Of a stretch of DNA of 38,413 nucleotides, positions 1 to 35,427 are shown one piece after another. How positions within the stretch are numbered: position 1 is the first letter of the stretch; the number at the start of each line of letters is the position of its first letter. The notes beneath the pieces were generated by a model, which was given only the letters and a program-made list of their open reading frames with translations, searched no databases and was not told the DNA's origin. The stretch spans positions 1 to 38,413 of the forward strand of contig DASWYJ010000031.1 in NCBI GenBank assembly GCA_036405035.1, read 5' to 3'. This DNA is from Burkholderiaceae bacterium (lineage in GTDB: Bacteria > Pseudomonadota > Gammaproteobacteria > Burkholderiales > Burkholderiaceae_C). Both the position numbers and the translations under genes were made by a program.

Positions 1-1
1 C

Positions 2-769
2 GTGGGGCGGTCGTCCCTTCCCGAGGCAGAAGAGTCGGAAGTAACACGATCCCTGACCGATCCGCGGGAACTGCGCCGTGTCCTCTCGACGCACAACAAG
101 GGCATGCGTCCTGCCGAGATTGAACGCATGGTGTCCACCCTTCTGGCCGAGCGGGAGCTGGGGCGCTCGCTGGAGGCGATCCGCCAGACGGGTGCTACGG
201 TCAATTACACCGGCATGGATGTGCGGAAAGACCGGGAATTTGCCAGTTTTGTGGAGGCGTTGTACCAGCGGCACGGCCGCATCGATGCGGTATTCCATGG
301 TGCCGGTGTCATCGAGGACAAACTGGCCCGAGACAAGAGTTTTGACAGTTTCTCCCGGGTTTTTGATACCAAGGTCAAGCCGGCTCTCGTGTTGTCGGAC
401 TGCATCCGGGACGACGTCAAGTGGGTGGTGTTCTTCTCCAGCGTGGCATCGGTTTTTGGCAACCGTGGGCAGAGCGACTATGCCGCAGCGAATGATGTAC
501 TGGACCGGCTTGCGCGGGGGTGGAACACCCGTCTGCAGGGTGCTGGAAAGGTGCTGGCCGTCAATTGGGGGCCGTGGGCGGGTACGGGGATGGTGTCGGA
601 ATCCCTCGAAAAGGAATATGCCCGGAAGGGGGTCGGGTTGATTCCGCTGGAGCAAGGCGTTTCGGCGCTGCTGGATGAGCTGCGTTTCGGCCAGGATGCG
701 CAATGCGTGCTGATGTGCGGAGCACCGGATGCCTTCGCCGGCAAAGCGGGAGTCGCTGCGGCGGTGTGA
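2..769 (+). CDS. C-terminal ketoreductase (KR) domain of a type I PKS / PUFA-synthase-like protein; 5-prime end lies outside the window
   Basis: The frame is open from the window edge; the M at position 2 is only the first in-frame GTG. SDR/KR signature FSSVASVFGNRGQSDYAAAN is followed by VNWGPWAGTGM, as in PKS KR domains. Stop at 767-769, 5 nt before the next PKS gene. Confidence 0.8.
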   Translation: MGRSSLPEAEESEVTRSLTDPRELRRVLSTHNKGMRPAEIERMVSTLLAERELGRSLEAIRQTGATVNYTGMDVRKDREFASFVEALYQRHGRIDAVFHGAGVIEDKLARDKSFDSFSRVFDTKVKPALVLSDCIRDDVKWVVFFSSVASVFGNRGQSDYAAANDVLDRLARGWNTRLQGAGKVLAVNWGPWAGTGMVSESLEKEYARKGVGLIPLEQGVSALLDELRFGQDAQCVLMCGAPDAFAGKAGVAAAV

Positions 770-774
770 CGCGA

Positions 775-3700
775 ATGGACCGGATTGCAATCATCGGGAT
801 GTCGTGCCTGTTCCCGGGCGCTCCCACATTGGCAGATTACTGGGCCAACATCGTCGGCGGCGTTGACGCCATCTCCGAGGTGCCGAGTGCGCGGTGGGAT
901 GCGTCGTTCTATGAACCCGACTCGCGCGCGGTCGATAGGTTCTACTGTCGGCGCGGTGGCTTCATCGACGATATTGCATCCTTCGATCCGGTCACATTCG
1001 GGGTGATGCCGAAGGCGGCGGACGCTGCCGAACCCGATCAGTTGCTGATGCTGAAGATCGGCCTGGAAGCCCTTCGGGACGCGGGATACCAGAACCGGGA
1101 GTTTGCCCGGCAGCGCACGGGCGTGGTCATCGGCCGTGGCAACTACATCACGGCCGGTGGCGCGCGGCTGGCCCAGCATGTCCGTGTCATTCCCCAGGTG
1201 CTGCTGACCCTCGGTGAACTGTTTCCAGACCTGGGCGCTTCGGCACTGGCACAGGTCAAGGAACGGCTGCTGAGCCAGCTCGACTATTTCGGCCCTGATG
1301 TCGCGGCAGGGATGATCCCGAACCTGGTGGCATCCCGTTTGGCCAACAAGCTGGATCTGCGGGGCCCCGCGTTTACCGTGGACGCGGCCTGCGCAAGCTC
1401 GTTGATTGCGCTGGAACATGCCTGCACCGCGCTACGGTCCGGGCAAACCGACATGATGATGGTTGGTGGCGTCCACGTGTGCCATGACCTGACCTTCTGG
1501 GCAACGTTCTGTCAGCTTGGCGCCTTGTCAAGAACGGGCGTCATCCGGCCGTTCTCTCGGCAGGCGGATGGCATTCTGGCGGGGGAAGGCATCGGCATGG
1601 TGGTGCTGAAGCGACTGGATGACGCGGTGGCGTCGGGCGATCGCATCTATGCCGTCATCGAAGGGGTTGGCTCCGCCAGCGATGGGCGCAGTGGCAGCCT
1701 GATTGCGCCCTCTGCTGACGGACAATTTCTCGCCTTGGAGCGCGCCTGGGCCGGGCTGCCTTTTGCGCCACAGGCAATCGGGTTGCTTGAAGCGCATGGA
1801 ACCGGCACGCCTGCCGGGGATGAGGCCGAGCTGGAAACGGTTGCGCGGTTCTTTGGCCCAACCCGCGGGCCGGCAGAGCGTGCTGTCATGGGCTCGGTCA
1901 AATCCATGATTGGCCACACGATGCCTGCAGCGGGTATTGCCGGCTTGATCAAGGGGGCACTGGCGGTGCACCACGGTGTGCTGCCGCCTTCGCTGCATTG
2001 CGGAGAGCCCCATCCGGGCATGGACCGCACCTGCTTCAGGGTGCTCGGTGAGGCGCGGCCATGGGAAGCGGAGCGAACCGAGCGTATCGCCGGAGTCAAT
2101 GCGTTTGGTTTTGGGGGCATCAACGCCCATGTGGTCATCCGGGGGCATGCCATGCCTGTCATGCCGACACACCGGATCACCAGTCCGGTGCCTGGACTTC
2201 CCCGCGTCATGGCGCTCAGCGCCGACACCCCCGGGCAACTGCTGGAGCGTCTTGCCGCAGGGCAGCGCAACACCGACCCCGGAAACGGTGCCTGTCGCAT
2301 CGCCATTGTTGATCCGGACAGCCGGAAGCTCGAACTGGCGCGCAAGATCATCACCGCCGGACAACCGTGGCATGGACGCAGCGACATGTACTTCACCACG
2401 GGTGGATTGGCCGCGGCGGGTGGAAAAGTCGCTCTGCTGTTCCCGGGCATTGACAGCAGCTTTGCACCGCAAACAGAAGGATTGGCTGCAGCGTTTGGCC
2501 ATCCGGTACCGGAGCACATCCATCAGTCCCACCCATCGGATGGCCTGTTGGGTACGGCATTGGGGGTGCTGGAATTCAACCGGTATCTGTTTGGCATATT
2601 GCAGGACCTGAAGATCCAGCCAGATGCCATTGCAGGTCACAGCATTGGCGAATGGAGCGCCATGCATGCGTCCGGCATGATGATCGGCGAAGGCCTGGAG
2701 GACCGGATTGGTGCCTCCATTGCGGGCAATGCCATCGCGTTTCCAGATGTTCTTTTTCTGGCTGCAGGATGCGATGTACACCGGATGCAGCAGGCGATGC
2801 ACGGCCTCGCCGAGATTTCCGTTTCGCATGAGAACTGCCCACACCAGGCCATTGCATGCGGGCGCAAAAGCAGTATCGAAACCCTGGCATCCCGTTTGCG
2901 GGAGTCGGCCGTTTTTTGCGAAGTGCTTCCCTTCGTGTCAGGTTTCCACTCGCCGTTGTTCAACGAGCATCTCGGGGTGTACCGGGAGTTCTTTGGTGCG
3001 GTGGGGCTCAGCACCCCCCGGACGCCGGTCTGGTCGGCCACGACGGCAACCCCATATCCCGATCACCCCGATGCCGTACGTGACCTGGCGATCGACCATC
3101 TGCTACAGCCCGTACGGTTTCATGCACTGATCGACGCCATGTACGCGGCAGGATGCCGGGTGTTCATCCAGGCAGGCACGGGGTCTCTGGTCGGATTCAT
3201 CGGCGACATCCTGAAAGGGCGACCGCATGTGGCCCTGCATGCCAACCAGGCCAAGCGGAGTGCCGTCGCGCAGCTAACCCATATGAGCGCTGCACTGTGG
3301 GTTGAGGGCCTCGCATTCGATGCCGCGTTGCTGGGAATAGCCAATGCGCTTCCCGGTGCGAGGGATGTGCCACCGGCCGCTGTACCGGAGCGGAAGGGCA
3401 AGTTGCTGGCGCTGGGCGTGCCCTTGGTGCAACTGGGTGCAGGCCTGGATCTGGGCACAGTATCCACGGCAGGGTCGGCCAGGCAACTGGCCGAGCAGGC
3501 GGCGGATCCCGTGCAGCGCATGGTGTTTCATACCATTGCAGAGATCGAGCGTGCCACGCGTGAGGTCTCCCAGTTGTTTGCCCAGCATCAATCCGGAGTG
3601 GGGTCCCGCCATGCCGGCCCAACAGCAGATGCAAGCCGAACTGCGCAACCGGCCCGTGCGGCGGCGGCGCCCGTTCCACCGTCCGGCATCCAGCGCCGTA

Positions 3701-5238
3701 TCCGTCGGGTACTCGACCTCGACACCACGATTCCCTACGTGCGGGACCATGCCCTGCACCCCCAGCGCGAGGGATGGCCGATCATTGCCGACCGCTATCC
3801 TGTTGTCCCCATGACGATGGAGGTCATGCTCGTGCGGGAGGCCGTCGAGGAAACGCTGCCCGGATATGTCGTCGTGGAAGTGCGCGAAATACAGGCGTAC
3901 AGATGGCTCATGGTATCGACACCGTGCAACGTGGACATCGTTGTGCAGTCGCTCGGCACCCATCTGCTGCGGGTCGATATCGAGGGGTATTTCCGGGCGC
4001 AGGTGGAGATTGCCGCAGCATATGCGGCACCTGCTGCCCCCCACGCAGAAGAGCCGCTTGCCGGCCATCGGGAAACCGCAATATCGGCCCAGGCTCTGTA
4101 CCAGGACAACTGGATGTTCCATGGTCCCGCCTACCAAGGGGTGGAGCGGTTCCTGGGTATTGGATCCAATGGCATCGATGGCGATATCCGGGTCCCGGAC
4201 GGCAAGGGGGCGCTGCTCGACAATATGGGGCAACTGGCGGGCTACTGGGTAATGGAACAGCCAGACAATTGCCTCGCCATGCCCATTGGTGTGGGGAAGA
4301 TCCGGTTCCACGGGCCTGACCCGTTGCCTGGTCAGCGCGTCACCAACAAGGTCAGGGTCCGGCAGCTGGATGCGGATACCTGCATCACCGACCACGTGCT
4401 GCGGGATGTTGACGGCAAGGCCAGCATCTCCATCGAAGGGTGGGCGACGCGGCGCTACCGGATGGACCGCAGCATGTGGGCGAACAGCCGGCAATTGCCC
4501 ATCTCCAGGTTTTCGCAGCCACTCACGGATGGTGTGATGGTTTTCAACGATGTCCACGACACGGCGATCATGCGGGATCATCTGGCGTGCCGTTACCTCT
4601 CGCAACCGGAAGTGCTGGTGTACGAACAGTTGCCACCACGGCGCAAGCGTCAGTGGCTCAGTGGGCGTGTTGCGGCCAAGGATGCCGTGCGCGACTTCCT
4701 GGCATCCAGCCAGGGGGTTCTGCGCGTTTTTCCGAAAGAAATGCGGATAGAAAACGATGCTGCGGGCGCCCCCCGGGTTGTGGCCCACGTCACCAACACC
4801 GTTCCATCCCATCTCCGGCTGTCGATTGCCCATAAGGCGGGTATCGCCGTCGCATTGGCATCGGATGGTGCGGTAGGTGTCGATGTCGAGGTGATCGAAC
4901 CGCGTCCCGACAGCTTTGTGGCCATGGTCTGCTCGGAGGCGGAGTGGCGTCTGCTGGATGGCGATGATCGGGATACCGCGGCTACCCGTGCCTGGGTTGC
5001 CAAGGAAGCGGTTGCGAAATCACTGGAAATCGGCATGGGCGCCAACCTGCGCAGCCTGGTGGTCGAGGCGGTGGATGGACCACGCGTCAAGATCGGACGG
5101 CACTGGGTTCACACCGCGCGGGTAGGCCAACATATTGTGGGCTGGACGCAGGAACATGACGCCGTCGGCACGACAATACGGGCCCCGGTTCTGCGCACCC
5201 AGGAGGGGATTGCGCACCAAGAAAAACAAGGAAGTTGA
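775..5238 (+). CDS. Type I polyketide synthase, domain order KS-AT-DH-PPTase (about 1487 aa)
   Basis: Start set at ATG 775 (MDRIAIIGMSCLFPGAP, a canonical KS N-terminus) rather than track start 703, which overlaps the upstream gene. KS ~775-2140: DAACASS (Cys codon 1390-1392), EAHGTGT, GSVKSMIGHT, NAFGFGGINAHVVI. AT ~2420-3260: LLFPGIDSSF, GHSIGEW (Ser codon 2641-2643), VSGFHSPLF. PKS-type DH ~3690-4470: VRDHALHP (His codon 3748-3750), FHGPAYQGV, LLDNMGQLAGYW. C-terminal 4-phosphopantetheinyl transferase ~4540-5110: VGVDVEVIE and WVAKEAVAKS motifs. No ACP, KR or ER motif seen inside this ORF. Confidence 0.9.
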   Translation: MDRIAIIGMSCLFPGAPTLADYWANIVGGVDAISEVPSARWDASFYEPDSRAVDRFYCRRGGFIDDIASFDPVTFGVMPKAADAAEPDQLLMLKIGLEALRDAGYQNREFARQRTGVVIGRGNYITAGGARLAQHVRVIPQVLLTLGELFPDLGASALAQVKERLLSQLDYFGPDVAAGMIPNLVASRLANKLDLRGPAFTVDAACASSLIALEHACTALRSGQTDMMMVGGVHVCHDLTFWATFCQLGALSRTGVIRPFSRQADGILAGEGIGMVVLKRLDDAVASGDRIYAVIEGVGSASDGRSGSLIAPSADGQFLALERAWAGLPFAPQAIGLLEAHGTGTPAGDEAELETVARFFGPTRGPAERAVMGSVKSMIGHTMPAAGIAGLIKGALAVHHGVLPPSLHCGEPHPGMDRTCFRVLGEARPWEAERTERIAGVNAFGFGGINAHVVIRGHAMPVMPTHRITSPVPGLPRVMALSADTPGQLLERLAAGQRNTDPGNGACRIAIVDPDSRKLELARKIITAGQPWHGRSDMYFTTGGLAAAGGKVALLFPGIDSSFAPQTEGLAAAFGHPVPEHIHQSHPSDGLLGTALGVLEFNRYLFGILQDLKIQPDAIAGHSIGEWSAMHASGMMIGEGLEDRIGASIAGNAIAFPDVLFLAAGCDVHRMQQAMHGLAEISVSHENCPHQAIACGRKSSIETLASRLRESAVFCEVLPFVSGFHSPLFNEHLGVYREFFGAVGLSTPRTPVWSATTATPYPDHPDAVRDLAIDHLLQPVRFHALIDAMYAAGCRVFIQAGTGSLVGFIGDILKGRPHVALHANQAKRSAVAQLTHMSAALWVEGLAFDAALLGIANALPGARDVPPAAVPERKGKLLALGVPLVQLGAGLDLGTVSTAGSARQLAEQAADPVQRMVFHTIAEIERATREVSQLFAQHQSGVGSRHAGPTADASRTAQPARAAAAPVPPSGIQRRIRRVLDLDTTIPYVRDHALHPQREGWPIIADRYPVVPMTMEVMLVREAVEETLPGYVVVEVREIQAYRWLMVSTPCNVDIVVQSLGTHLLRVDIEGYFRAQVEIAAAYAAPAAPHAEEPLAGHRETAISAQALYQDNWMFHGPAYQGVERFLGIGSNGIDGDIRVPDGKGALLDNMGQLAGYWVMEQPDNCLAMPIGVGKIRFHGPDPLPGQRVTNKVRVRQLDADTCITDHVLRDVDGKASISIEGWATRRYRMDRSMWANSRQLPISRFSQPLTDGVMVFNDVHDTAIMRDHLACRYLSQPEVLVYEQLPPRRKRQWLSGRVAAKDAVRDFLASSQGVLRVFPKEMRIENDAAGAPRVVAHVTNTVPSHLRLSIAHKAGIAVALASDGAVGVDVEVIEPRPDSFVAMVCSEAEWRLLDGDDRDTAATRAWVAKEAVAKSLEIGMGANLRSLVVEAVDGPRVKIGRHWVHTARVGQHIVGWTQEHDAVGTTIRAPVLRTQEGIAHQEKQGS

Positions 5239-5520
5239 ATGAATTCGCAATATGACAACACGTTGGCCACGGTTGTTTCGACCATTCGCACGGCAATCGA
5301 CGAAGACTGGATTCACGATTGGGATATCCATGCGGAAACCCGCTTGAGCAGTGACCTCGAACTCGACAGCATTGAATTTGTCAAGATTGCCGATGCGCTG
5401 CAGGTGCATTACGGGGCACGCATCAACATGGTGCAGTGGTTGTCGGGGAAGAACATGGATGAACTCATCAACATGACCGTTGGTGATATCGCGGCATTCA
5501 TTGCATCCGCAGCAAGCTAG
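5239..5520 (+). CDS. Discrete acyl carrier protein (93 aa)
   Basis: ATG immediately follows the PKS stop (TGA 5236-5238). Carrier-protein attachment motif DLELDSIEFVKIADAL (DSI/L serine), with size and helical pattern typical of an ACP. Confidence 0.85.
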   Translation: MNSQYDNTLATVVSTIRTAIDEDWIHDWDIHAETRLSSDLELDSIEFVKIADALQVHYGARINMVQWLSGKNMDELINMTVGDIAAFIASAAS

Positions 5521-5528
5521 AGCGTCCG

Positions 5529-6686
5529 GTGGCGAGAGTCCTGTTTGTTGTTCCCCCGCTGGTCGGCCATCTGAATCCGGCGCTGGCGGTTGCTTCCGTG
5601 CTGGAGGCCGCAGGGCACACGGTTGCGTGGTGTGTTCATGCGGAGATCATCGGTGACCGGCTCCCGCGTGGGGCAACCGTGTTTCCCATCCGCAGCGTAG
5701 CCGGGGTGGATTTCATCGCGCGCTCATCGGATTTGCGTGGTCTGGAGAGCGTTCGCTTCTTTCTGGACGAGTTCGTGATGCCCATGGCGAGCGATTCCCT
5801 GTCCGTGATCGAGCGCGCAGTGGACGGATTTCTCCCGGATCTGATGGTGGTCGACCACCAGATGGTTGCCGGGGCACTGGTCGCACGCAAGCGTGAGCTG
5901 CCCTGGTTGTCACTGGTCACGACCACGGCATCCATACTGAAACTTCTGCCATCCCACGACGCTTGGGTCGAGGCGCAATATGGGCGCCTGCAGCAGGGAT
6001 ATCTGCCCCCGTCGCGGATCGTGGCCCGGCCTGATTTCTCTCCCGATGCGGTGGTGGTCTTCTCCGTCGACATGCTGGTCGGGGACGCCTATGAGCGGTT
6101 TGACGCTCCCTATGTCTTCGTGGGGCCGTCTGGCGGCGTAGGGCAGCGCGATGTGGCATTTCCCTGGGAATGGCTGGAGCCCGGCCGGAAGAAGCTGCTC
6201 GTGACGCTCGGCACCTTGAGCCGTGATCGTGAAACACGATTCTTTGATGTGGTGGCTGCCGCCCTGGCCGAACTGGATATCCAGGCCGTTTTTGTGGCAC
6301 CGGAGTCGATGATCGGGCGGGTGCCTGCCAATGTACTGGTGCGGTCTTACGTGCCCCAGCATGCATTGCTGCCGCACATGGATGGCGTGATCTGCCATGC
6401 GGGACACAATACCGTGTGTGAAAGCCTCGCAGCCGGATTGCCGCTGATCGTGGCGCCCATACGGGATGACCAGCCCATCGTGGCCCGGCAAGTGGCCCGG
6501 GCCGGTGTGGCAATCCCCGTACGCTACGGCAAGGTTACGCCTGTCGGAGCAAAAAAAGCCATCGAGCAACTGGTCGGTGATCAGGAGATGGCCCGGAAAG
6601 CGCGTGCGGTGGCCCGCCAGTTTGCGGACGCCCCCGGTCCGCATGGCGTGTTGCCGATCGTGGATCGGTTGTGTGTGCCCGTTTGA
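5529..6686 (+). CDS. GT1-family (MGT / UDP-glycosyltransferase-like) glycosyltransferase
   Basis: GTG start giving MARVLFVVPPLVGHLNPALAVA, a typical GT-B N-terminus. C-terminal nucleotide-sugar binding signature HAGHNTVCESLAAGLPLIVAPIRDDQP. Confidence 0.85.
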   Translation: MARVLFVVPPLVGHLNPALAVASVLEAAGHTVAWCVHAEIIGDRLPRGATVFPIRSVAGVDFIARSSDLRGLESVRFFLDEFVMPMASDSLSVIERAVDGFLPDLMVVDHQMVAGALVARKRELPWLSLVTTTASILKLLPSHDAWVEAQYGRLQQGYLPPSRIVARPDFSPDAVVVFSVDMLVGDAYERFDAPYVFVGPSGGVGQRDVAFPWEWLEPGRKKLLVTLGTLSRDRETRFFDVVAAALAELDIQAVFVAPESMIGRVPANVLVRSYVPQHALLPHMDGVICHAGHNTVCESLAAGLPLIVAPIRDDQPIVARQVARAGVAIPVRYGKVTPVGAKKAIEQLVGDQEMARKARAVARQFADAPGPHGVLPIVDRLCVPV

Positions 6687-6701
6687 TGTGGTGAGATCCG
6701 G

Positions 6702-7496
6702 ATGAAAATGATCGATGTCGACGGGGCCCGGCTGGCTTCGCTGGAAATGGGGAGTGGCCGCACTACGGTGTTTGTCCATGGGCTGGCCTTTGGCAGCATG
6801 GCGCTGTGGTACATGACCGGTGTGACGGCGCTGTCGGATGCACGCCGTATCGTGCTGTATGACCAGCGGGGGCATGGCAACAGCAGCGAGGCTGCGGCCG
6901 GATTCGATCTGGATACGCAGGCAAACGATCTCGATGCCGTGGTACGCAGCTATGTAGGGGACGATGAAACCATTGACCTCGTCGGGCACAGCATGGGCGG
7001 CTTGATCGCAATGCACTATGCCATGCGGTGGCCCGAAAAGGTTCGCCGCTGCGTGGTGGTGGATGCCGGTGTACCGGCGTCCCAGTACATGCTTCCGGGT
7101 TTGCAGGCAATACAGTCTGAAGACGCCCTGAATGCTTACCTGGACAGCCCGTACAGCATCAGCCCGGGCCTGGGGGGGCGCCGCCGGGAACGCGTGTTCC
7201 AGCGGCTCAAAGGCCTGTTTTTTGAGTCAACGATGATCCAGGATGTGGCTGCGATGCAGACCCCTCCGCCCGAAGACATGACACGCCTGCGTATGCCCGT
7301 GCTGCTGGTATACGGCCGGACATCGCCTTTCATTCCCGCAGCCCATTTTCTGCTGGAGCATCTCCCTTGTGCGCAGTTGGCGCTCCTGGAGTGTGGGCAC
7401 CGGATAACGCGCGAGGCACCGGCTGCCCTGTTCGCCGAAATCGGGCGCTTTCTGCAGCCGGCGGCGGCGGTGGATGCATCCGCCGCGCGCACGTGA
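6702..7496 (+). CDS. Alpha/beta-fold hydrolase (possible thioesterase/esterase)
   Basis: VFVHGLAFGS oxyanion region, nucleophile elbow GHSMGG, C-terminal His in ECGHRITREAP. Sits 15 nt after the GT gene. Confidence 0.8.
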   Translation: MKMIDVDGARLASLEMGSGRTTVFVHGLAFGSMALWYMTGVTALSDARRIVLYDQRGHGNSSEAAAGFDLDTQANDLDAVVRSYVGDDETIDLVGHSMGGLIAMHYAMRWPEKVRRCVVVDAGVPASQYMLPGLQAIQSEDALNAYLDSPYSISPGLGGRRRERVFQRLKGLFFESTMIQDVAAMQTPPPEDMTRLRMPVLLVYGRTSPFIPAAHFLLEHLPCAQLALLECGHRITREAPAALFAEIGRFLQPAAAVDASAART

Positions 7497-7498
7497 CG

Positions 7499-8725
7499 AT
7501 GCAGACATCCATGGCAACGGTTGCACAACCTGTGTATTCACGGCCGCTGTCTGGCATCGAGCGGTATTCGCTCATGTTCCATGCGGTGTGCCGTTACCAC
7601 GTGGATGCCATTTTGCAGGGGCAGGGTGATCTGAGCGCCGCCGAATTGCGCATGGCCGTGGCAACTGCCGCAGAGGCCAATCCGGGGGTTCGGGTCCGCT
7701 TGCGGGGCATTCTGGGCTGGGCGCGTTGGGTGGACAGTGGCATCGCTCCCGTCGTGCATGTGGTCGAATCGAGCAACTGGACAGGTTCCAGCGGGGAAGG
7801 GGCAGACTTTCTGTCCACCGCGCTGGACGCGATACGAGGGGGGCCGGTTGCCGATCTGTTTCTTGTCCGCTGTGCGGATCAGCAGTTGCGCATTGTTTTC
7901 CGAAGTGTGCATGCGGCGATTGACGGCCGCGGGATCATGCACTGGATCCAGGACATCTTCCGTGTCTTGCGGGGCGACCCTCCTATTGGTTCCCACTCGA
8001 CACTGACCGACGGCGATGTCCAGGCCCGTTACCGTGACCGCCTGCAGCACAGCGGCTTCACGCCGTTGCCGCCGGCCGACACCATTCCGGTTATTTCAGC
8101 AGGAACAGCGACCGGGCCGCTGGACTACATCTGGCGGCGTGTTGTGCTGCCTAAAAGTCCATCGGGTCTGCTGGCACGGAGCGCCGTTTTTCTTGCGCAA
8201 TGGGCAAGGCAATCCGGGCCGGGGGAGGTCCGGTTTACGATTCCTGTGGACTACCGGGGCTTGCGAACGGATGAAATGGGCGTTGGCAATCTCACCGGAT
8301 TCCTGAAGTTGTGCGTGGAGCCCACGGACACGCATCGCAGCCTGACGCTTCGCCTGAGTCAGCTGGTGAAAGCCTATGCCGATTGTTACCAATCCCGCGA
8401 GATTCCCGTGATACGGTGGCTGCCGCTGCGGTTTCTCGTATCCAAGCTGCGGGAGCGCCTGAATACCCTGTTGTTCAAGCTGAACCACGACATGCCCAGT
8501 GGCGGTATTGTGTCGATGGGTTCACCCGACATGGCCCGCTATTCGTGTGCGGGTTTTCGGGCGGAATATCTGTACGGAATCCCCGGCTTCGTGGGGAAAC
8601 TGAATGTCGTATTTCTTTCCTATGCCGATTTTGCTGTGGTGACATTTGCCGCTCCGGCCGCATACAACGACCAAAAGCAGTTCGACGCCCTGATCCACGC
8701 TTATGAGGCCCATTTTTCATCATGA
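7499..8725 (+). CDS. Stand-alone condensation-domain-like (HxxxDG) acyltransferase, paralog 1
   Basis: Start set at ATG 7499, 2 nt after the hydrolase stop (track start 7367 overlaps the hydrolase). Catalytic-type motif VHAAIDGRG (His codon 7910-7912), as in NRPS C domains and the PapA5 / WS-DGAT acyltransferases. Clearly paralogous to 13027-14262. Confidence 0.65.
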   Translation: MQTSMATVAQPVYSRPLSGIERYSLMFHAVCRYHVDAILQGQGDLSAAELRMAVATAAEANPGVRVRLRGILGWARWVDSGIAPVVHVVESSNWTGSSGEGADFLSTALDAIRGGPVADLFLVRCADQQLRIVFRSVHAAIDGRGIMHWIQDIFRVLRGDPPIGSHSTLTDGDVQARYRDRLQHSGFTPLPPADTIPVISAGTATGPLDYIWRRVVLPKSPSGLLARSAVFLAQWARQSGPGEVRFTIPVDYRGLRTDEMGVGNLTGFLKLCVEPTDTHRSLTLRLSQLVKAYADCYQSREIPVIRWLPLRFLVSKLRERLNTLLFKLNHDMPSGGIVSMGSPDMARYSCAGFRAEYLYGIPGFVGKLNVVFLSYADFAVVTFAAPAAYNDQKQFDALIHAYEAHFSS

Positions 8726-9942
8726 ATGAAGTTGATCTGAACCGTTTGCGTATCCACCGCAACGCCGAATCGCCCGGCATCCGGCGCCAACCCCGGCGCT
8801 GGCTGTGGCCCGTGCTGGCGCTGCTGGCTGTGGGGGCCATCGGGGGCTATTTCATTCAGAACCCACCGGCCACCACTGTCCAGACGACCCAGGCCGTGAC
8901 GGCATTCCCTTCCTCGCAGTTCGTTGCGTTGAATGCGACCGGATACGTGGTTGCCCGGCGCAAGGCCTCGGTTGCCTCCAAAGGAACCGGGCGGCTGGAG
9001 TGGCTGGGTGTGACTGAAGGCAGCAAAGTGAAGGCGGGGGAGTTGATCGCCCGGCTCGAGAGTCGTGATGTGTCGGCATCCCTGCAGAGTGCGACAGCCA
9101 ACAATGATGTAGCGCTGGCCTCCATCGCATCGGCCAATACCGAATTGGCCGATGCACAGCAGAACCTCCGGCGGGTTGAAGACCTGTTTCAGAAGCAATT
9201 CGTTTCACAGACTGCATTCGATGATGCCAAGTCGCGGGTTGCCCGTGCCCTGGCGGCAACGAACAGTGCCAAGGCATCCCAGGCAGCGTCCAAGGCAAAT
9301 GAAAGCTTTGCACGCAACGCGGTCGAGTACACCAACATTCGCGCGCCATTCGATGGAGTCGTGATTTCCAAAACCGCCAATGTGGGGGATGTCGTCACGC
9401 CGCTGTCGTCCGCCGCAGACGCCAAGGGAGCCGTTGTGGTGATCGCTGATCTTGGCACGCTGGAAGTGGATGCCGATGTTTCCGAATCGGCGCTTGCCAG
9501 CATCGTGATAGACCAGCCGTGCATCATTGTTCTGGATGCCTTTCCGAAGGAACGTTGGCGCGGCCGTGTGAGCACCATTGTCCCGACGGTCAAACGCTCC
9601 AGTGCAACCGTCACCGTGAAGGTACAGATCATGGATCTGGATGCACGCATCCTGCCGGACATGAGCGCCAAGGTCAGCTTTCTGACACAACCGGTCGATC
9701 TGGCGACGGATTTGCCGGCCGTGGCTGTCAATCCCGCTGCGATCGTGCGCGAAGGAACGCAGGCTTTTGTTTTTCGCGTGGAGCCGGATGCAACCGTCCA
9801 GCGCATCCCGGTCACCCCGGGTGTGAAATCCGGTGATGTGCAATTTGTCGCCGGCGCACTGAAGGCTTCCGATGTCCTGGTGGTGTCGCCTTCGGATGGA
9901 ATGAAATCCGGAGCCCGGGTCCGTGTCGCGGACCGGAAATGA
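8722..9942 (+). CDS. HlyD-family periplasmic adaptor (membrane fusion protein), DevB/MacA-like
   Basis: ATGA start/stop overlap with the preceding gene. N-terminal TM segment WLWPVLALLAVGAIGGYF, a coiled-coil hairpin region (AQQNLRRVEDLFQK...), a lipoyl/beta-barrel pattern (APFDGVVISK) and a C-terminal beta domain. Confidence 0.85.
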   Translation: MNEVDLNRLRIHRNAESPGIRRQPRRWLWPVLALLAVGAIGGYFIQNPPATTVQTTQAVTAFPSSQFVALNATGYVVARRKASVASKGTGRLEWLGVTEGSKVKAGELIARLESRDVSASLQSATANNDVALASIASANTELADAQQNLRRVEDLFQKQFVSQTAFDDAKSRVARALAATNSAKASQAASKANESFARNAVEYTNIRAPFDGVVISKTANVGDVVTPLSSAADAKGAVVVIADLGTLEVDADVSESALASIVIDQPCIIVLDAFPKERWRGRVSTIVPTVKRSSATVTVKVQIMDLDARILPDMSAKVSFLTQPVDLATDLPAVAVNPAAIVREGTQAFVFRVEPDATVQRIPVTPGVKSGDVQFVAGALKASDVLVVSPSDGMKSGARVRVADRK

Positions 9943-9943
9943 C

Positions 9944-10630
9944 ATGACTTCACTGATCTGCGCAGCCGGGCTGGGCAAGACCTACTGGCGTGGCAGGCTC
10001 GCGGTGCCGGTGCTGCTGGATGTCAATCTGGATATCCAGGCTGGTGAATACGTGTCGTTAATGGGGCCGTCCGGGTCCGGAAAAAGCACCCTGCTCAACC
10101 TGATTGCCGGCATCGACAAACCCACCGCTGGAAGCCTCCATATTGCCGGAGTCAACATGGTGGAGTTGTCGGAGAAGGAGTTGTGTGCCTGGCGTGCGCA
10201 GCATGTCGGCTTCATTTTCCAGCTCTACAACCTCATGCCGGTTCTCACGGCATTCGAGAATGTAGAGTTGCCGCTGTTGCTGACCGGGCTGACCCGTCGT
10301 GAACGGCGCGAGCATGTCGAAATGGCATTGGCGATGGTGGGGCTCGGTGATCGCCTGGACCACCATCCGAACCAGTTGTCCGGAGGCCAGCAGCAGCGTG
10401 TGGCTATCGCCCGTGCGCTGGTGTCGGACCCTACCCTGATCGTGGCCGACGAGCCCACAGGAGATCTTGATCGCACCTCTGCCAATGAGGTGCTGCAGCT
10501 GCTGGATCGCCTGAACAGCGAAATGGGGAAAACCATCGTGATGGTGACCCATGATCCCAAGTGCGCGGCCCGCGCCACCCGCCAGATTCATCTGGACAAA
10601 GGGGTGTTGTTGTCCGCGATGCCGGAATAG
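9944..10630 (+). CDS. ABC transporter ATP-binding protein (DevA/LolD/MacB-NBD-like)
   Basis: ATG 9944 lies 1 nt after the adaptor stop (9940-9942); track start 9923 is a GTG overlapping that gene. Walker A GPSGSGKST, signature LSGGQQQRVAIARAL, Walker B LIVADEPTGDLD. Confidence 0.9.
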   Translation: MTSLICAAGLGKTYWRGRLAVPVLLDVNLDIQAGEYVSLMGPSGSGKSTLLNLIAGIDKPTAGSLHIAGVNMVELSEKELCAWRAQHVGFIFQLYNLMPVLTAFENVELPLLLTGLTRRERREHVEMALAMVGLGDRLDHHPNQLSGGQQQRVAIARALVSDPTLIVADEPTGDLDRTSANEVLQLLDRLNSEMGKTIVMVTHDPKCAARATRQIHLDKGVLLSAMPE

Positions 10631-10646
10631 CACGTACCGCATCAAC

Positions 10647-11813
10647 ATGCATATCTGGTACATCCTGCGGCTGGCCGTCAAAAACATGTGGCGGCATTGG
10701 CTGCGAACCGCGCTCACCATGGTGGGGATCGCTGTGGCAATCGCTGCGTTCGGCCTTTTGCAGACGGTCGTCGATGCGTGGCTGGCGGGGGTCGAGACGG
10801 CATCGTCTGCCCGGCTGATCACGCGGAACAAGGTATCGCTCACCTTTCCGCTGCCGGTTACGCATATTGAAAGCCTGCGAAGAATCAAAGGGGTCCAGTC
10901 AGTCAGCTGGGCCAACTGGTTTGGGGGAATCTATATCGATGAGCGGCGCTTTTTCCCTCAGTTCGCCGTGGACGCACGCAGCTATTTCCACGTCTATCCG
11001 GAGTACGAAGTCCCCGAACACGAAATGGCAGAGTTTCTACGCGACCAGCGTGGCGTCGTGGTGGGCCGCAAGGTTGCCAGTGACTACGGTTGGCGGGTAG
11101 GTGATCAGGTTGCGCTGAAAGGAACCATTTATCCGGGGGCCTGGAGTTTCACGGTGCGGGGTATCTACCACGGGGCGGACAGCAAGGTCGACGAAACACA
11201 GTTCCTCTTCCATTGGGATTACCTGAACGAAATGGTGAAAAGCCTGTTGCCATCACGGGCAGACAAGGTGGGCGCGATCATCGTGTATCTCGAGAATCCC
11301 GCCATGGCAGCTTCCGTGGCAACGGAAATCGACGAGACGTTCCGTAACTCGCTGGCCGAAACACTCACTGAAACCCAGAAATCCTTTCAGCTGGGGTTTG
11401 TCGCCATGGTCGATACGATCCTGACCACGATCCAGGTGGTTTCCTTTGCTGTCATTCTCATCATCATGGCGGTCATGGCGAACACCATGGTCATGACGGC
11501 GCGCGAGCGCTCCCGCGAGTATGCGACGCTCAAGGCGCTGGGATTCCACGACCGGTCGGTTTTTGGGCTCATCCTTGCGGAATCTCTGTTGATCGCTGGC
11601 GTGGGTGGGGCAATAGGGGTAGCCTGGTGTTTTCCGTTGGCCCAGCTCTTCCATGAAGCCAGTGGGCGGATGTTTCTCGTTTTCGAGATCAGTTCCACCA
11701 CGGTGGTGCTGCAGTTGGCGGGAGCCGCATTGGTCGGGGTGGTGGCCGCGTTGTATCCCGCCTGGGCCAGTTCCCGCATTCGCGTTGTCGACGGCCTGCG
11801 TGCGGTGACATGA
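10647..11813 (+). CDS. ABC transporter permease, MacB-periplasmic-domain + FtsX type, copy 1
   Basis: Start set at ATG 10647 (MHIWYILRLAVKNMWRHWLRTALTMVGI). One N-terminal TM, a large periplasmic domain and a C-terminal FtsX-type three-TM bundle with RERSREYATLKALGF and YPAWASSRIRVVDGLR. Confidence 0.85.
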   Translation: MHIWYILRLAVKNMWRHWLRTALTMVGIAVAIAAFGLLQTVVDAWLAGVETASSARLITRNKVSLTFPLPVTHIESLRRIKGVQSVSWANWFGGIYIDERRFFPQFAVDARSYFHVYPEYEVPEHEMAEFLRDQRGVVVGRKVASDYGWRVGDQVALKGTIYPGAWSFTVRGIYHGADSKVDETQFLFHWDYLNEMVKSLLPSRADKVGAIIVYLENPAMAASVATEIDETFRNSLAETLTETQKSFQLGFVAMVDTILTTIQVVSFAVILIIMAVMANTMVMTARERSREYATLKALGFHDRSVFGLILAESLLIAGVGGAIGVAWCFPLAQLFHEASGRMFLVFEISSTTVVLQLAGAALVGVVAALYPAWASSRIRVVDGLRAVT

Positions 11814-12979
11814 ATTCGCTTGCCATTGCGTATGCGGCGCGCAACCTGCGCGCGCGAAAGATAACCACGCTGCTGACCGTCGTGGGCATGGTGCTGGTGG
11901 CGGGTATTTTTGCCGTCGTGCTCATGCTCACCGAAGGGTTGCGCCAAACGCTGGCGGGTACCGGCTCCTACAACAATGTGGTGATTACCCGGCAGGGAAC
12001 TCTCACGGAAACCCAGAGCACGATCGAGCGGGCCCAGGCCAACCTCATCGAGACCTTTCCTGGCCTGGCCGCCGATGGCGACGGCCGCGGTATCGTTTCG
12101 CGGGAGGTGGTTGTTCTGGTGAACCTGCTGAAGAAGGGCACCAACACACCCGCCAATGTGCTCATTCGAGGAACGACACCGAATGGGCTGGCGATGCGAA
12201 GCCAGGCGCACATCGTGAGCGGTCGCATGTTTCGGCCAGGCACCTCGGAAATCATTGTGGGCAATGGCATATTCCGGAATCACCAGGGCACCACGATCGG
12301 CAGCAAGCTGTCGTTCGGTTTGCGCGAATGGACGGTGGTCGGTGTGTTCGATGCGGGAACCAGTGGATTCAATTCCGAGGTCTGGGGCAATACCGAGCAG
12401 ATGATGCAGGCGTTCCGGCGCGAAGCGTTCTCCTCGGTCATTGGCCGCTTGCGTGACAGCGGGGCCATGGACGAGTTGGTGGCGGCGATCCGGGCAGATC
12501 AGCGGCTCAAGCTGGAGCTCAAGCGCGAGTCGATCTTCTATGCAGACCAGGCAGAGAAGCTGTCCAATTTCATCGACATATTCGGAAAAACCATCACGGC
12601 GGTGTTTTCGATTGCCGCGATCATCGGGGCCATGATCACGATGTATTCAAGTGTGGCCAACCGGACGCGGGAGATCGGAACCTTGCGCGCGCTCGGTTTT
12701 GGGCAGCGGGCCATCGTCGGGGTTTTTCTCTGTGAAGCGGTGCTGTTGGGCGTGGTGGCAGGCTGTTTGGGTCTGAGCCTGGCGTCGGGTGCGCAGTGGG
12801 TGGAGGTATCCACCACGAATTTCCAGACCTTCTCCGAAATCTCCTTCCGGCTGAGCCTCACACCGGCCATCGGGTTTCAGGTGCTGGCATTTTCTGTGTT
12901 CATGGGCGTATTGGGTGGCGTTCTGCCAGCGGTGCGTGCGGCGCGGCTCGAGATCGTGGACGCATTGCGGGCTGTCTAG
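11810..12979 (+). CDS. ABC transporter permease, MacB-periplasmic-domain + FtsX type, copy 2
   Basis: ATGA overlap with copy 1. Same architecture: ARNLRARKITTLLTVVGM, RTREIGTLRALGF, LPAVRAARLEIVDALR. Confidence 0.85.
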   Translation: MNSLAIAYAARNLRARKITTLLTVVGMVLVAGIFAVVLMLTEGLRQTLAGTGSYNNVVITRQGTLTETQSTIERAQANLIETFPGLAADGDGRGIVSREVVVLVNLLKKGTNTPANVLIRGTTPNGLAMRSQAHIVSGRMFRPGTSEIIVGNGIFRNHQGTTIGSKLSFGLREWTVVGVFDAGTSGFNSEVWGNTEQMMQAFRREAFSSVIGRLRDSGAMDELVAAIRADQRLKLELKRESIFYADQAEKLSNFIDIFGKTITAVFSIAAIIGAMITMYSSVANRTREIGTLRALGFGQRAIVGVFLCEAVLLGVVAGCLGLSLASGAQWVEVSTTNFQTFSEISFRLSLTPAIGFQVLAFSVFMGVLGGVLPAVRAARLEIVDALRAV

Positions 12980-13026
12980 CGCCAAAGCTGCGGCCCTCCT
13001 GTTCCCATCCCTTACTAGAGAGGCGT

Positions 13027-14262
13027 ATGCCAGGCAATCTCACATTGGAACCGACGCGGCAAATATCACGGCGGTTGACCACGCCCGAGTACTACCACGC
13101 ATGTATCGGAGAAAGCAACCGCACCATCGAGCCACCCCGGGAAGCCATCTTTGTACTGACGGGCGAGGGGCATGTCGCCCCTGAAACATGGCGCGGGGCA
13201 TTGGATGCGGTCGCGGAAGCCAACCCGGGCCTGCGCCTGCGCATCGTGGGTTCGCGCATGGGCACCCGGTGGCAGAGTGATGGCCTGACCACTCCCGTGC
13301 GTGTTGTCGCCGATCCCCAATGGGACGGGCAGTCCGAGGAGGGCTCCGCGTTCATCTACGAAACCCGATTGAATCTGCATGCGGGTCCTGCAACGGAGCT
13401 GATCATTGCACCCCAGGCTTCCGGACGCACGCTGGTGATTTTCCGCGCGCTGCATGCCGTGATGGATGGGCGTGGTGTACGGCATTTCCTGTACGAATTG
13501 TTCCGGGCCCTGCGCGGCGAACCTTTGTTGGGTACCAACGTCGCTTTCGGCGATGCCGACCTGATGAAAGAGGTGGGGCCATCGCACTCGACATCCCGGC
13601 ATGTGCCATCTGTTGCCCTGACCGGGGGCCAGCGCGGCGCCCTGCAAGGGGATACCTGGAGGCGGCTGACATTCCCCTTGCCCCAGCACGACATCCTGGC
13701 CCGTACCGCCAGTGCGATGGCGGCGTATGCACATCGGCATGCAAATGGAACCGCGCTGATTGCCGTCCCGGTCGATCTCCGGCGGCACATGCCCGCGATC
13801 CAGTCGACCCTGAACTTCAGCAGCATGCTGCTCGTCCCCATGCAACCCGGCGATGGGCCTGACGTATTCAAACGCGGGCTGCGCAACATGCTGGAGCAGA
13901 AAATGGAGGCGCGGTATCCACGGCTCCTGGATTGGGTCCGGCTGCTGCCGCTACCGTGGCTTGACGCGCTGGTTTCGCGCACCCCCCGGAATTACGTGAA
14001 CAAACGCCTGATGGAGACGGTGCTGATTTCCAATCTGGGGGTATTCGATCTGGGGACAATGCACGGCGCAGGCTTTTCCACCGACAACATCTTTTGCCTT
14101 CCGCTGGGCGGGAATGCATGCTGTGTCCTGGCCGGAACGGACCGGCATGTGGAGATGACCGTCTGTCTGTCGCAGGTGCTGGCCAGCGATGGGCGGATGG
14201 ATGACCTGATCCGGTTCCTTCGCGAATCGCTGTCTGTGAACCCGGATAAATCCAGCGCCTGA
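13027..14262 (+). CDS. Stand-alone condensation-domain-like (HxxxDG) acyltransferase, paralog 2
   Basis: Start set at ATG 13027 (MPGNLTLEPT) with a purine-rich stretch upstream. Motif LHAVMDGRG (His codon 13453-13455). Aligns by eye with paralog 1: AEANPGLRLR vs AEANPGVRVR, LFRALRGEP vs IFRVLRGDP, VPVDLRR vs IPVDYRG. Confidence 0.65.
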   Translation: MPGNLTLEPTRQISRRLTTPEYYHACIGESNRTIEPPREAIFVLTGEGHVAPETWRGALDAVAEANPGLRLRIVGSRMGTRWQSDGLTTPVRVVADPQWDGQSEEGSAFIYETRLNLHAGPATELIIAPQASGRTLVIFRALHAVMDGRGVRHFLYELFRALRGEPLLGTNVAFGDADLMKEVGPSHSTSRHVPSVALTGGQRGALQGDTWRRLTFPLPQHDILARTASAMAAYAHRHANGTALIAVPVDLRRHMPAIQSTLNFSSMLLVPMQPGDGPDVFKRGLRNMLEQKMEARYPRLLDWVRLLPLPWLDALVSRTPRNYVNKRLMETVLISNLGVFDLGTMHGAGFSTDNIFCLPLGGNACCVLAGTDRHVEMTVCLSQVLASDGRMDDLIRFLRESLSVNPDKSSA

Positions 14263-14323
14263 CGGCCGCTGCTCGAGGGCGGGGCCTTCGCAGTGCGGTG
14301 CGTGGGAAATTCAGGCGCTCAGT

Positions 14324-14364
14324 AAAAAACCCCTGCAGCGCGTTCAGAAATCGCTCTGCAGGGG
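14324..14364 (-). terminator. Rho-independent terminator downstream of the lipoprotein gene
   Basis: On the minus strand, stem CCCCTGCAG (14356-14364) pairs with CTGCAGGGG (14330-14338), followed by a T6 run (A6 at 14324-14329 on the plus strand). Confidence 0.6.
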
Positions 14365-14421
14365 CTGGCGCCGTTTCCGTACTCCGCAGGAAGAGCGGGT
14401 ACGGCTGGCAACGGATGCGGC

Positions 14422-14937
14422 TTACTTGACCGTGACCTCGATCGTCTTGCTCAGGGCTTCGCCGTACGACTGGTGTGCGCCATTGGCGAACTGGGCCGTC
14501 AGCTTGTACTTGCCGGGGGCCAGCTTCACTTCGGCTTCGGTCTGGGCCTTGCCGTAGTGCAGGTGGGTTTCATCCATCGGGATCGACTGGCCTTCGGCAA
14601 TCGGACCCGTATTGATCAGCAGGTGATGGTGGCCCGAGCCCGCCACGATGGCGCCAGCGGGTTCCACCTTCAGGCCGTCAATGCCGAACTTGACCTTGAA
14701 CGGCGACGATACGGTGGCACCGTCTGCGGGTTCCAGGATCGACACCGAGCCCGTGACTGCAGGGGCGGCCGATGCGGGCGCCGACGCCGGTGCGGCAGCA
14801 GGAGCGGGCGCAGGTGCCGGTGCGGCGGCAGGGGCCGGTGGCGGCTCGGCCTTGTTGCAGCCCGCCAGCACGCCGAGACCCAGGGTGGTCACGGCTGCGA
14901 TGGCCAGAAAATGTTTGGCAGATTTCTTGATTTGCAT
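14422..14937 (-). CDS. Lipoprotein, DUF4399-like, with a Pro/Ala-rich linker
   Basis: Signal peptide plus lipobox LGVLAGC. Linker PPPAPAAAPAPAPAPAAAPASAPASAAPA. C-terminal domain carries GSGHHHLLINTGP, a pattern I associate with DUF4399. Confidence 0.7.
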   Translation of the reverse strand: MQIKKSAKHFLAIAAVTTLGLGVLAGCNKAEPPPAPAAAPAPAPAPAAAPASAPASAAPAVTGSVSILEPADGATVSSPFKVKFGIDGLKVEPAGAIVAGSGHHHLLINTGPIAEGQSIPMDETHLHYGKAQTEAEVKLAPGKYKLTAQFANGAHQSYGEALSKTIEVTVK

Positions 14938-14995
14938 TCGAAACTCCTCGAAATTTTGGTACTGGGGTTCAGACTCTATACCAACGCGATTGACG

Positions 14996-15069
14996 TGGAG
15001 CGGGTGAAGGGAATCGAACCCTCGTATGAAGCTTGGGAAGCTGCCGTTCTACCATTGAACTACACCCGC
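14996..15069 (-). tRNA. tRNA-Gly (anticodon CCC)
   Basis: Reverse complement reads GCGGGTG TA GTTC AATGGTA GAAC G GCAGC TTCCCAA GCTTC ATAC GAGGG TTCGATT CCCTT CACCCGC TCCA. This is a full cloverleaf with encoded CCA, nearly identical in layout to E. coli glyU. There is one C-U mismatch in the anticodon stem. Confidence 0.93.
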
Positions 15070-22255: not shown

Positions 22256-22474
22256 GGGGGAGTCTCCGGGATGGCGGGGCCTGCGCGGCGGGGAGGCCGG
22301 CAAGCGGGCAGGGCGTGCAAGATTGCGGTAAGGATAGCGGTTTGCAGGCCCTGCTGCAGCGCCGGTGCGACAAGGCCACAGGCCCCGGAAACCTATAATT
22401 GCCGGCTATCCCGCACAGGCTCCCCGTCTGTAGCACGCGGCACGCCGCCGCGCCGGGACAACCGCTGGTCCACC

Positions 22475-25099
<2,625 letters not shown>

Positions 25100-25105
25100 G
25101 CGCGG

Positions 25106-26245: not shown

Positions 26246-26257
26246 CGGTGTGCCGGG

Positions 26258-26950: not shown

Positions 26951-27091
26951 GGGCTCGACCTTACCGCAGAGCGCCGGATTTCCCAATAGAAATGCCCCGA
27001 AGTCGCCCGTATCTGGTGCTTTTACGCTGCATATTTGCTAGCAAACGCTGTTTGGCCGGGTGCAATCCGGCGGTATCGTGCGCGTTTTTTC

Positions 27092-30234: not shown

Positions 30235-30235
30235 G

Positions 30236-31222: not shown

Positions 31223-31324
31223 GGGGTATGCGCGCCAGCCACCACGCCGCGCCGCGCGAAGCAAGGCACGGCGCCCTTGGAGGGCAGCGCAGTGCGCGCA
31301 ACAGGGAGCGTGGAGGCCATGTTT

Positions 31325-32269: not shown

Positions 32270-32298
32270 GGTGAAACCATAACGTAAAAAAACGGGAC

Positions 32299-33252: not shown

Positions 33253-33269
33253 CTCGAGGAGACAACACC

Positions 33270-35374: not shown

Positions 35375-35391
35375 GGCCCGCGGCGCGCTGC

Positions 35392-35420: not shown

Positions 35421-35427
35421 CGGAAAA

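Follow-up and report, generated by a model that had tools for sequence, protein, structure and literature searches.

Secondary lipid synthases resembling the Pfa synthase of polyunsaturated fatty acids (PUFA) are common in genomes, and only a handful of their products are known (PMC13291983, PMC3098273). Here, we report an operon of eleven genes (g1 to g11) that joins such a synthase to tailoring enzymes and export machinery, found in a 38,413-nucleotide (nt) stretch of DNA from a Burkholderiaceae bacterium (GenBank assembly GCA_036405035.1, contig DASWYJ010000031.1, positions 1-38,413, forward strand; the whole stretch is called the window below). As predicted from its sequence, the region 2-14262 is a real, intact, and conserved orphan operon; it is a Pfa-like secondary-lipid cluster with an undescribed tailoring-and-export extension and not a new category of cluster.

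Eleven plus-strand open reading frames (ORFs) occupy 2-14262 (ORF list and translations), as follows:

2..769, plus strand: g1, 3' end, ketoreductase (KR) domain (Pfam KR, E 2.7e-30; best NCBIfam match, the KR region of PfaA)
775..5238, plus strand: g2, 1487 amino acids (aa), ketosynthase (KS)-acyltransferase (AT)-dehydratase (DH, as PS-DH)-phosphopantetheinyl transferase (PPTase, as ACPS) (Pfam ketoacyl-synt, Acyl_transf_1, PS-DH, and ACPS, all above cut-off)
5239..5520, plus strand: g3, discrete acyl carrier protein (ACP), 93 aa, LDSIE serine motif (Pfam PP-binding, 24.4 bits; cut-off, 20.8)
5529..6686, plus strand: g4, GT1-family glycosyltransferase (GT), macrolide-GT-like (Pfam EryCIII-like_C and UDPGT, above cut-off)
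6702..7496, plus strand: g5, alpha/beta hydrolase, GHSMGG nucleophile elbow (Pfam Abhydrolase_1 and Abhydrolase_6)
7499..8725, plus strand: g6, predicted stand-alone condensation-superfamily enzyme, HAAIDGRG motif, start at 7499 or 7511 (fold match)
8722..9942, plus strand: g7, periplasmic membrane-fusion (adaptor) protein with an N-terminal transmembrane helix (TIGR01730, 173 bits; cut-off, 94.9; HlyD_D23)
9923..10630, plus strand: g8, ABC ATPase, probable start 9944; Walker A, signature, and Walker B intact (Pfam ABC_tran, E 1.9e-36)
10647..11813, plus strand: g9, MacB-type permease, MacB_PCD plus FtsX (Pfam; orthologues with 58-61% identity in loci L097, L098, and L103)
11810..12979, plus strand: g10, second, divergent MacB-type permease, MacB_PCD plus FtsX (Pfam; orthologues with 60-62% identity)
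13027..14262, plus strand: g11, predicted second stand-alone condensation-superfamily enzyme, HAVMDGRG motif (fold match; g6 paralogue)

The genes are separated by spacers of 5, 0, 8, 15, 2, 1, and 16 nt or overlap by ATGA (at 8722 and 11810), and the 47-nt gap before g11 is the sole larger spacer; these figures assume the starts best backed by homologues (7499 for g6 and 9944 for g8) and, recomputed here, agree with those first given for the locus. The catalytic motifs of the KS, AT, KR, PPTase, GT, hydrolase, and ATPase are all intact in the translations. Sibling metagenome contigs (98.5% identity to window positions 1-15013) carry, 5' of g1, a 340-nt leader and then the end of an unrelated CoA-transferase-like gene, and the genes upstream of the related cluster in a Cellvibrionales metagenome-assembled genome (MAG) encode an arginyl-tRNA synthetase and a SPOR protein. 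Because only unrelated genes lie upstream of g1, the operon begins with g1 and has eleven genes, so the suggestion in the original prediction that it continues past the left edge is correct for g1 itself and not beyond it. An Rfam scan of the 5' leader of sibling contig L099 (SRR31091941_427, which has the full cluster) returned nothing close to the gathering score. Exact-sequence look-ups found public copies of the membrane-fusion protein and the ACP, and found none for the GT and g2, because the window departs from the public copies by a few residues. Between g11 and a convergent DUF4399 gene (14422-14937, minus strand) stands a GC-rich hairpin (CCCCTGCAG...CTGCAGGGG; 14330-14364) preceded by A6, which looks like the terminator of the minus-strand gene and perhaps of the operon as well; it was absent from a pattern scan because of its loop size.

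Within the window, g1 shows only its KR part. In the sibling contigs, full-length g1 encodes 2380 aa in the order degenerate NMO-like region, NMO-type (PfaD-like) enoyl reductase (ER), KS, AT, two ACPs, and KR, with the PfaA-type LEADLSIDSIKR motif in the tandem ACPs of the sibling protein P0151. The apparent lack of an ER at first sight of the locus was thus an effect of the window edge. The active-site motifs of g2 are intact in translation (DAACASS, GHSIGE, and GVD/WxAKEAxxK, the last for the PPTase); it has a KS with its active-site cysteine, an AT, and one PS-DH domain, without a chain-length-factor KS (KS-CLF). Against the PfaA model TIGR02813 (cut-off, 1010 bits), g2 scored 457 bits and the g1 fragment 143 bits. 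By their domain content, g1 and g2 together carry a complete reductive cycle and the means for self-activation of carrier proteins. With one DH, no KS-CLF, and only two ACPs, the pair looks more like a synthase of the iterative, fatty-acid-like kind than like a PUFA synthase or a modular polyketide synthase (PKS). Pfam and NCBIfam scans found no reductase or NAD-binding release domain in the eleven genes or in full-length g1; therefore, the carboxyl end should persist as an acid or ester, with which the LCM-family carboxyl or O-methyltransferase of sister clusters (see below) agrees.

Some variation was seen among g1 relatives. Residues 1-330 of P0151, from the off-window N terminus, form a second, degenerate NMO/TIM-barrel-like region ahead of the canonical ER, and the g1 orthologue in locus L017 has two NMO stretches by Pfam. 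Two JGI metagenome contigs (L010, 1-5531 and 10291-11447; L013) have g1 split into ORFs of 1465 aa and 771 aa and the GT split into ORFs of 203 aa and 177 aa, which reflects either frameshifts introduced in sequencing or operon copies undergoing decay.

The GT-B C-terminal nucleotide-sugar domain of g4 was matched by PF06722 (57.1 bits; cut-off, 31.7) and PF00201 (50.4 bits; cut-off, 19.5), and its relatives in the Protein Data Bank (PDB) include YjiC, OleD/OleI, and CalG. For g5, the PF00975 Thioesterase match is weak in the window and reaches an E value of <=1e-5 in the Solimonas and Hydrocarboniphaga orthologues; g5 is thioesterase-like and probably an enzyme of chain release or transfer, which makes the reported absence of a thioesterase doubtful. 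A possible rhamnolipid logic like that of RhlA/RhlB (alpha/beta hydrolase plus GT1) was set aside; RhlA was not among the 60 best PDB sequence relatives of g5.

The remaining two enzymes, g6 and g11, matched no Pfam or NCBIfam model (PF00668 included), and single-sequence phmmer searches against the PDB returned nothing for either. The two are paralogous to each other (28% identity, E 5e-38). Aligning 45 homologues showed no variation at H138, D142, or R144 and at least 90% conservation of G143; the motifs VHAAIDGRG (g6) and LHAVMDGRG (g11) keep the second histidine of HHxxxDG, the first not being conserved, and 18 of the 45 match PF00668 weakly (best E, 1.3e-5). A profile search against the PDB reached CmnI at E 5.9e-4. 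AlphaFold2 models (pLDDT, 95 for g6 and 84 for g11) compared with Foldseek placed g6 with AzeD (8s6l, stand-alone), the MokA condensation (C) domain, and C domains of nonribosomal peptide synthetases (NRPSs) at E 1e-18 to 1e-16, the best match (E 1.5e-18, TM 0.74) having the two-lobed chloramphenicol-acetyltransferase-like fold. For g11, the top match was the lipo-initiation starter C domain of RzmA (E 3.7e-18), and the starter C domain of CDA synthetase was also matched. Searched by tblastn, g6 aligned over 99% of its length (28% identity, E 7e-25) with the N-terminal domain of a 1004-aa NRPS. On these modeled folds and sequence matches, both proteins are assigned to the condensation superfamily, as a subfamily outside current domain libraries. 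The condensation-like calls of the original prediction thus fail under hidden Markov model (HMM) searches and are borne out by fold and by the NRPS alignment.

A full-library profile search recovered 787 clusters (representatives at 50% identity), and 390 reached E <=1e-30; family members are mostly ~400 aa long, and a few are fused into larger proteins. The stand-alone g6 family has fused relatives in actinomycete PKS/NRPS clusters. The 1004-aa NRPS is encoded on a Streptomyces atratus plasmid (NZ_CP108284.1; L101, 9004-12018), where its gene adjoins TauD dioxygenase and type I PKS genes.

All parts of a MacB-type pump (MacB_PCD plus FtsX permease, adaptor, and ABC ATPase) are present in g7 to g10 by Pfam and NCBIfam. 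The two permeases share 33% identity over the C-terminal 142 aa only and are old, divergent paralogues. The ATPase g8 resembles LolD, MacB, DarD, and DevA yet falls under every equivalog cut-off. Across the pump genes, the scores were 234 against 966 for MacB, 234.5 against 307.75 for LolD (TIGR02211), and 46.5 and 25.4 against 362.45 for LolCE (TIGR02212). With MacAB-TolC, the system shares MacB_PCD plus FtsX, a MacA-like adaptor, and, in orthologous clusters, a TolC-like outer-membrane efflux protein, whereas the ATPase is fused in MacB and separate here. With LolCDE, it shares two different permeases and a separate ATPase (LolC/LolE/LolD), but LolCDE has no adaptor. By its parts, the pump is a member of the MacB superfamily, mixing features of the MacB and LolCDE systems. 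The original prediction's lack of an outer-membrane factor applies to the window and not to orthologous clusters, as a TolC-like gene lies 20 nt past g11 on the same strand in Hydrocarboniphaga effusa (L103) and 0.8 kb off in Solimonas aquatica (L098); the host of the window presumably uses a TolC encoded elsewhere in its genome.

Conservation was examined by scanning one genome per species for g2 relatives and taking neighborhoods from the 80 best loci. At least 596 loci encode a g2 relative (best, 56% identical). In the 80 best loci, a core made up of g1, g2, ACP, hydrolase, and GT is nearly always found in synteny (g3 was matched in 76 of them), across Actinomycetota, Bacteroidota, Acidobacteriota, Gemmatimonadota, and Proteobacteria, including Streptomyces, Amycolatopsis, Kitasatospora, Chitinophaga, Aquimarina, Sulfidibacter, members of the Gemmatimonadota, and various Proteobacteria. 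This five-gene core is not peculiar to the present genome; it is a widespread orphan class that has been noticed before. The extension by C-like enzymes and MacB-type pump is rarer than the core and was seen in a proteobacterial subset only. Three cultured Gammaproteobacteria (Aquirhabdus parva [CP031222, region 400-425 kb], S. aquatica, and H. effusa) keep the full eleven-gene order, and the Cellvibrionales MAG has a partial version; the extended order reads g1, g2, ACP, GT, hydrolase, LCM methyltransferase (in some), g6, membrane-fusion protein, ATPase, permease, permease, g11, with protein identities to the window of 43-76%. In four lineages, the exporter genes are nested between g6 and g11 in the same order. 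The two C-like enzymes are retained as separate orthologous groups (g11 orthologues, 43-47% identity), g6 adjoins g11 without the pump in two MAGs, and the core, the LCM gene, and a g6 orthologue all occur in Sterolibacterium.

Relatives in named genomes are annotated just as "type I polyketide synthase" or "hypothetical protein". The proposal of an orphan operon of PKS, GT, condensation-like acyltransferases, and exporter with an undescribed product is supported on three counts: no characterized whole-operon match was found, the relatives being annotated generically and no product being assigned in the literature searched; three cultured species share the gene block in unchanged order, and the Cellvibrionales MAG has part of it; and the domain calls pass in Pfam and NCBIfam, except for g6 and g11.

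Sister clusters vary the theme. An LCM-family (leucine carboxyl/TcmP-like) methyltransferase gene, lacking in the window, sits between the hydrolase and g6 genes at these sites, which hints at a methylated variant of the product:

L097, 9141-10004: LCM methyltransferase
L017, 17003-17929: LCM methyltransferase
L021, 16610-17440: LCM methyltransferase
L102, 23981-24838: LCM methyltransferase

Nine Streptomyces loci (L044, 16810-21146, and eight others) have the core followed by an MsbA-like fused ABC exporter, and three of the nine also encode a PlsC-type acyltransferase together with a luciferase-like monooxygenase; export and acylation are solved differently there. That the core has been linked repeatedly and independently to exporters and acyltransferases argues most strongly for a lipid that is acylated further and exported.

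The operon is compositionally foreign to its host. GC content at third codon positions is 0.66-0.76 in the cluster genes (2-14262) versus 0.84-0.87 in the genes for alanyl-tRNA synthetase, electron transfer flavoprotein (ETF), enoyl-CoA hydratase, HDAC, and MscS (22271-37365). ETF-beta groups at 90% identity with sequences from Rhodoferax, Comamonas, Variovorax, and Aquincola, so the host is a member of the Burkholderiales, in keeping with the betaproteobacterial appearance noted at the outset. The nearest named relatives of the cluster genes belong to the Gammaproteobacteria; together with the codon-position composition, this suggests that the operon was probably acquired horizontally.

Among known systems, the five-gene core probably corresponds to Types M/N of Shulse and Allen, an assignment made from the taxa, which agree with those listed there, as the text of that paper is without domain order; the integrated PPTase points the same way. 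Types M/N were described in 2011 as orphan secondary lipid synthases with unknown products, and Type P adjoins them in the KS-phylogeny ordering (PMC3098273). Clusters of the M/N-like kind (the hglE-KS class of antiSMASH) have a PfaD/PfaA-like ER-KS-AT-ACPn-KR gene followed by a KS-AT-DH gene with integrated PPTase, as here; the two C-like enzymes and the MacB-type pump are the extension in the proteobacterial subset to which this operon belongs. A canonical PUFA synthase likewise has the PfaA-type KS-AT-tandem ACP-KR arrangement and the PfaD-type (NMO/FabK-like) ER, but identification with PfaABCDE was rejected, the operon having no KS-CLF and no tandem FabA-like DH and missing the TIGR02813 cut-off.

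The heterocyst glycolipid system (hgl, HglT, and DevBCA-HgdD) offers, as an analogy, the same logic of a Pfa-like iterative synthase, a GT, an exporter of membrane-fusion protein, ABC ATPase, and FtsX-type permease, and a TolC-like channel. It differs in having a KS-CLF-AT gene, one DevC rather than two different permeases, and an HglB-type thioester reductase; since the operon lacks the last, no fatty alcohol or diol aglycone is expected. Membership in DevBCA was rejected, as all three cut-offs were missed (DevB TIGR02971, 45.1 versus 129; DevA TIGR02982, 214.5 versus 295.8; DevC TIGR01185, 28.8 and 26.5 versus 290.35), and hgl islands are reported as a single cyanobacterial lineage (PMC11804610).

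In the mycobacterial pathways for phthiocerol dimycocerosate, sulfolipid-1, and polyacyltrehalose, Pks enzymes act with PapA-type acyltransferases and MmpL exporters, and PapA2 and PapA1 acylate successively. Stand-alone condensation-superfamily enzymes thus stand beside a lipid PKS and an exporter there too, and two paralogues would, by this analogy, fit two acylations; the mycobacterial exporter is of the resistance-nodulation-division type (MmpL), whereas here a MacB-type ABC pump occurs in a Gram-negative host. PapA5 itself was not among the 50 best Foldseek hits, and the one link to that name (E 0.01) was to chain 8s6l, called a dimycocerosyl transferase by its depositors but in fact AzeD of Pseudomonas. 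The relationship found is a remote one, and a reading of g6 and g11 as PapA5 orthologues was set aside. The DevBCA and PapA5 parallels drawn in the original prediction hence survive as functional analogies only.

In Azotobacter vinelandii, two large proteins, ArsA and ArsD, form an iterative type I fatty acid synthase whose C22-C26 chains are handed to downstream head-group enzymes, giving the alkylresorcinol lipids of cysts. The likeness is to the division of labor: the head-group enzymes there are type III PKSs, and those here may be the ACP, hydrolase, and GT.

Taken together, these data lead us to a reading that we hold somewhat likelier to be right than wrong: the operon is self-contained and makes and exports an acylated, very-long-chain glycolipid, its PKS working iteratively like a fatty acid synthase to give a long chain, saturated or hydroxylated, which is glycosylated, acylated by the two condensation-like enzymes, and exported by a MacB-type, two-permease tripartite pump. 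In this scheme, g1 and g2 would iterate malonyl units into a long, largely saturated chain, perhaps keeping a hydroxyl, with the PPTase domain of g2 serving self-activation of the carrier proteins. The chain would be handled on the discrete ACP (g3), released or transferred by g5, and given a sugar by g4; g6 and g11 would each attach an acyl group through an ester (or amide) bond, taking it from a thioester of CoA or of a carrier protein, a donor use modeled on free-standing C enzymes and lipo-initiation C domains. The pump would then draw the lipid from the inner membrane and across the periplasm by means of the ATPase g8, a g9/g10 heterodimer, and the adaptor g7, docking on a TolC-like channel encoded elsewhere in the host genome. 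Gene content, domain integrity, paralogy, folds, block conservation, and foreign composition are what the analysis establishes; we infer chain length, saturation, the order of steps, which acceptor and donor the C-like enzymes use, where the product goes, and everything else past chain synthesis. The full reductive domain set across g1 and g2 and the PfaA-type tandem ACPs count for this reading, as do the condensation fold of g6 and g11, their invariant H...D pair, and their fatty-acyl-transferring starter C neighbors.

Several points weigh on the other side. The C-like fold is also compatible with dehydration, epimerization, and cyclization, and the top Foldseek match of g6, AzeD, is annotated as a dehydratase. 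The second KS-AT pair and the discrete ACP are without assigned roles. MacB-type pumps load their substrates at the periplasmic face, and the operon has no gene for a flippase, a step thus lacking in the model; domain scans found no TolC-like outer-membrane factor in the 38-kb window. Operon status is read from the sequence, and the literature searched contained no paper with a product for the cluster and named no homologous characterized cluster.

The same assembly line could instead serve C-like enzymes that amide-link an amine or amino-acid head group, or that dehydrate or cyclize the chain, to give a lipo-amino-acid glycoside or a modified chain. Amide formation is the commonest C-domain chemistry, the match of g6 to AzeD (8s6l) is joined by one to the dehydrating C domain AmbE, and the nearest sequence relatives of g6 outside its family are N-terminal domains of NRPSs of the C-A-T type; yet domain scans found no adenylation domain, aminotransferase, or amino-acid-activating enzyme in the operon, the His-Asp pair typical of acyl transfer is invariant, and the top matches of g11 are lipo-initiation C domains, so we rate this outcome as unlikely. 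Less probable again is a bioactive, glycosylated polyketide that is secreted, such as a macrolactone whose ring a C-like enzyme closes, with the MacAB-like pump providing self-resistance or secretion. The best NCBIfam match of the GT is indeed the macrolide glycosyltransferase family (TIGR01426), but its 160.6 bits fall under the family cut-off of 260; and although macrolides and peptides are known cargo of MacB-type pumps and fungal CT and terminal C domains are capable of macrocyclization, a single module-equivalent with full KR/DH/ER and PfaA-type tandem ACPs points to an iterative fatty-acid-like chain and not a patterned macrolide, and the core is widely conserved across phyla, as for a structural lipid and not an antibiotic.

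We regard it as very improbable that the operon is an ordinary PUFA or hydrocarbon synthase (a Pfa/Ole-type source of membrane lipid) and that the GT, hydrolase, C-like enzymes, and pump are unrelated neighbors. Omega-3 PfaA is the best NCBIfam match of both g1 and g2, and g1 has the PfaD-type ER and PfaA-type tandem ACPs; however, the score of 457 is far from the PfaA cut-off of 1010, there is no KS-CLF pair, and Pfam finds one PS-DH-type domain in g2 rather than the tandem DH of PfaC. Gaps of 0-16 nt and ATGA overlaps join all genes, moreover, and the whole gene order is conserved across orders.

Beyond the operon, the rest of the window is housekeeping (alanyl-tRNA synthetase, ETF, enoyl-CoA hydratase, MscS, MoxR, transglutaminase, lytic transglycosylase, and aldehyde dehydrogenase). 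Identity between window and sibling stops 18 nt inside the 3' end of a tRNA-Gly gene (ccc; 14996-15069, minus strand). In sibling contig L001 (16280-21221), a LysR-type gene comes after the tRNA remnant, along with a Tn7-like module (TnsA-like, Mu-transposase-C/TnsB, TniB, and TniQ), which suggests that a Tn7-like or integrative element inserted at tRNA-Gly in the sister strain. The operon itself was considered as a genomic island at tRNA-Gly and rejected as such: the left flank has no matching repeat, and the Tn7-like insertion in the sibling explains the break better. Farther along, a minus-strand run (26258-32308) encodes NlpC/P60, an SLT_2 lytic transglycosylase, a TgpA-type transglutaminase, an unassigned ORF, and a MoxR AAA+ ATPase; over this stretch, the long ORFs on the plus strand lack family matches and are probably spurious.

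The operon brings together a synthase, tailoring enzymes, and a surface-export machine in one package and occurs in cultured, genetically approachable bacteria, which makes its product testable. It also offers for study a stand-alone condensation-type family without a Pfam model and a pump layout with two different MacB-type permeases and an adaptor. Possible roles of the product include a surface barrier, a biosurfactant for hydrophobic substrates, and outer-membrane remodeling. More tentatively, and as a prospect we would not yet bet on, some Gram-negative bacteria, among them many that degrade hydrophobic substrates (Hydrocarboniphaga, Solimonas, Sterolibacterium, Steroidobacteraceae, and Cellvibrionales), may make a new class of multiply acylated, very-long-chain glycolipids, delivered to the surface by a dedicated pump in which a heterodimeric permease like LolCE works with an adaptor like MacA and a channel like TolC. 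If true, such lipids would be the counterpart, outside the cyanobacteria, of the heterocyst glycolipid layer, and the widespread Type M/N-like synthases of secondary lipids would gain their first assigned product.

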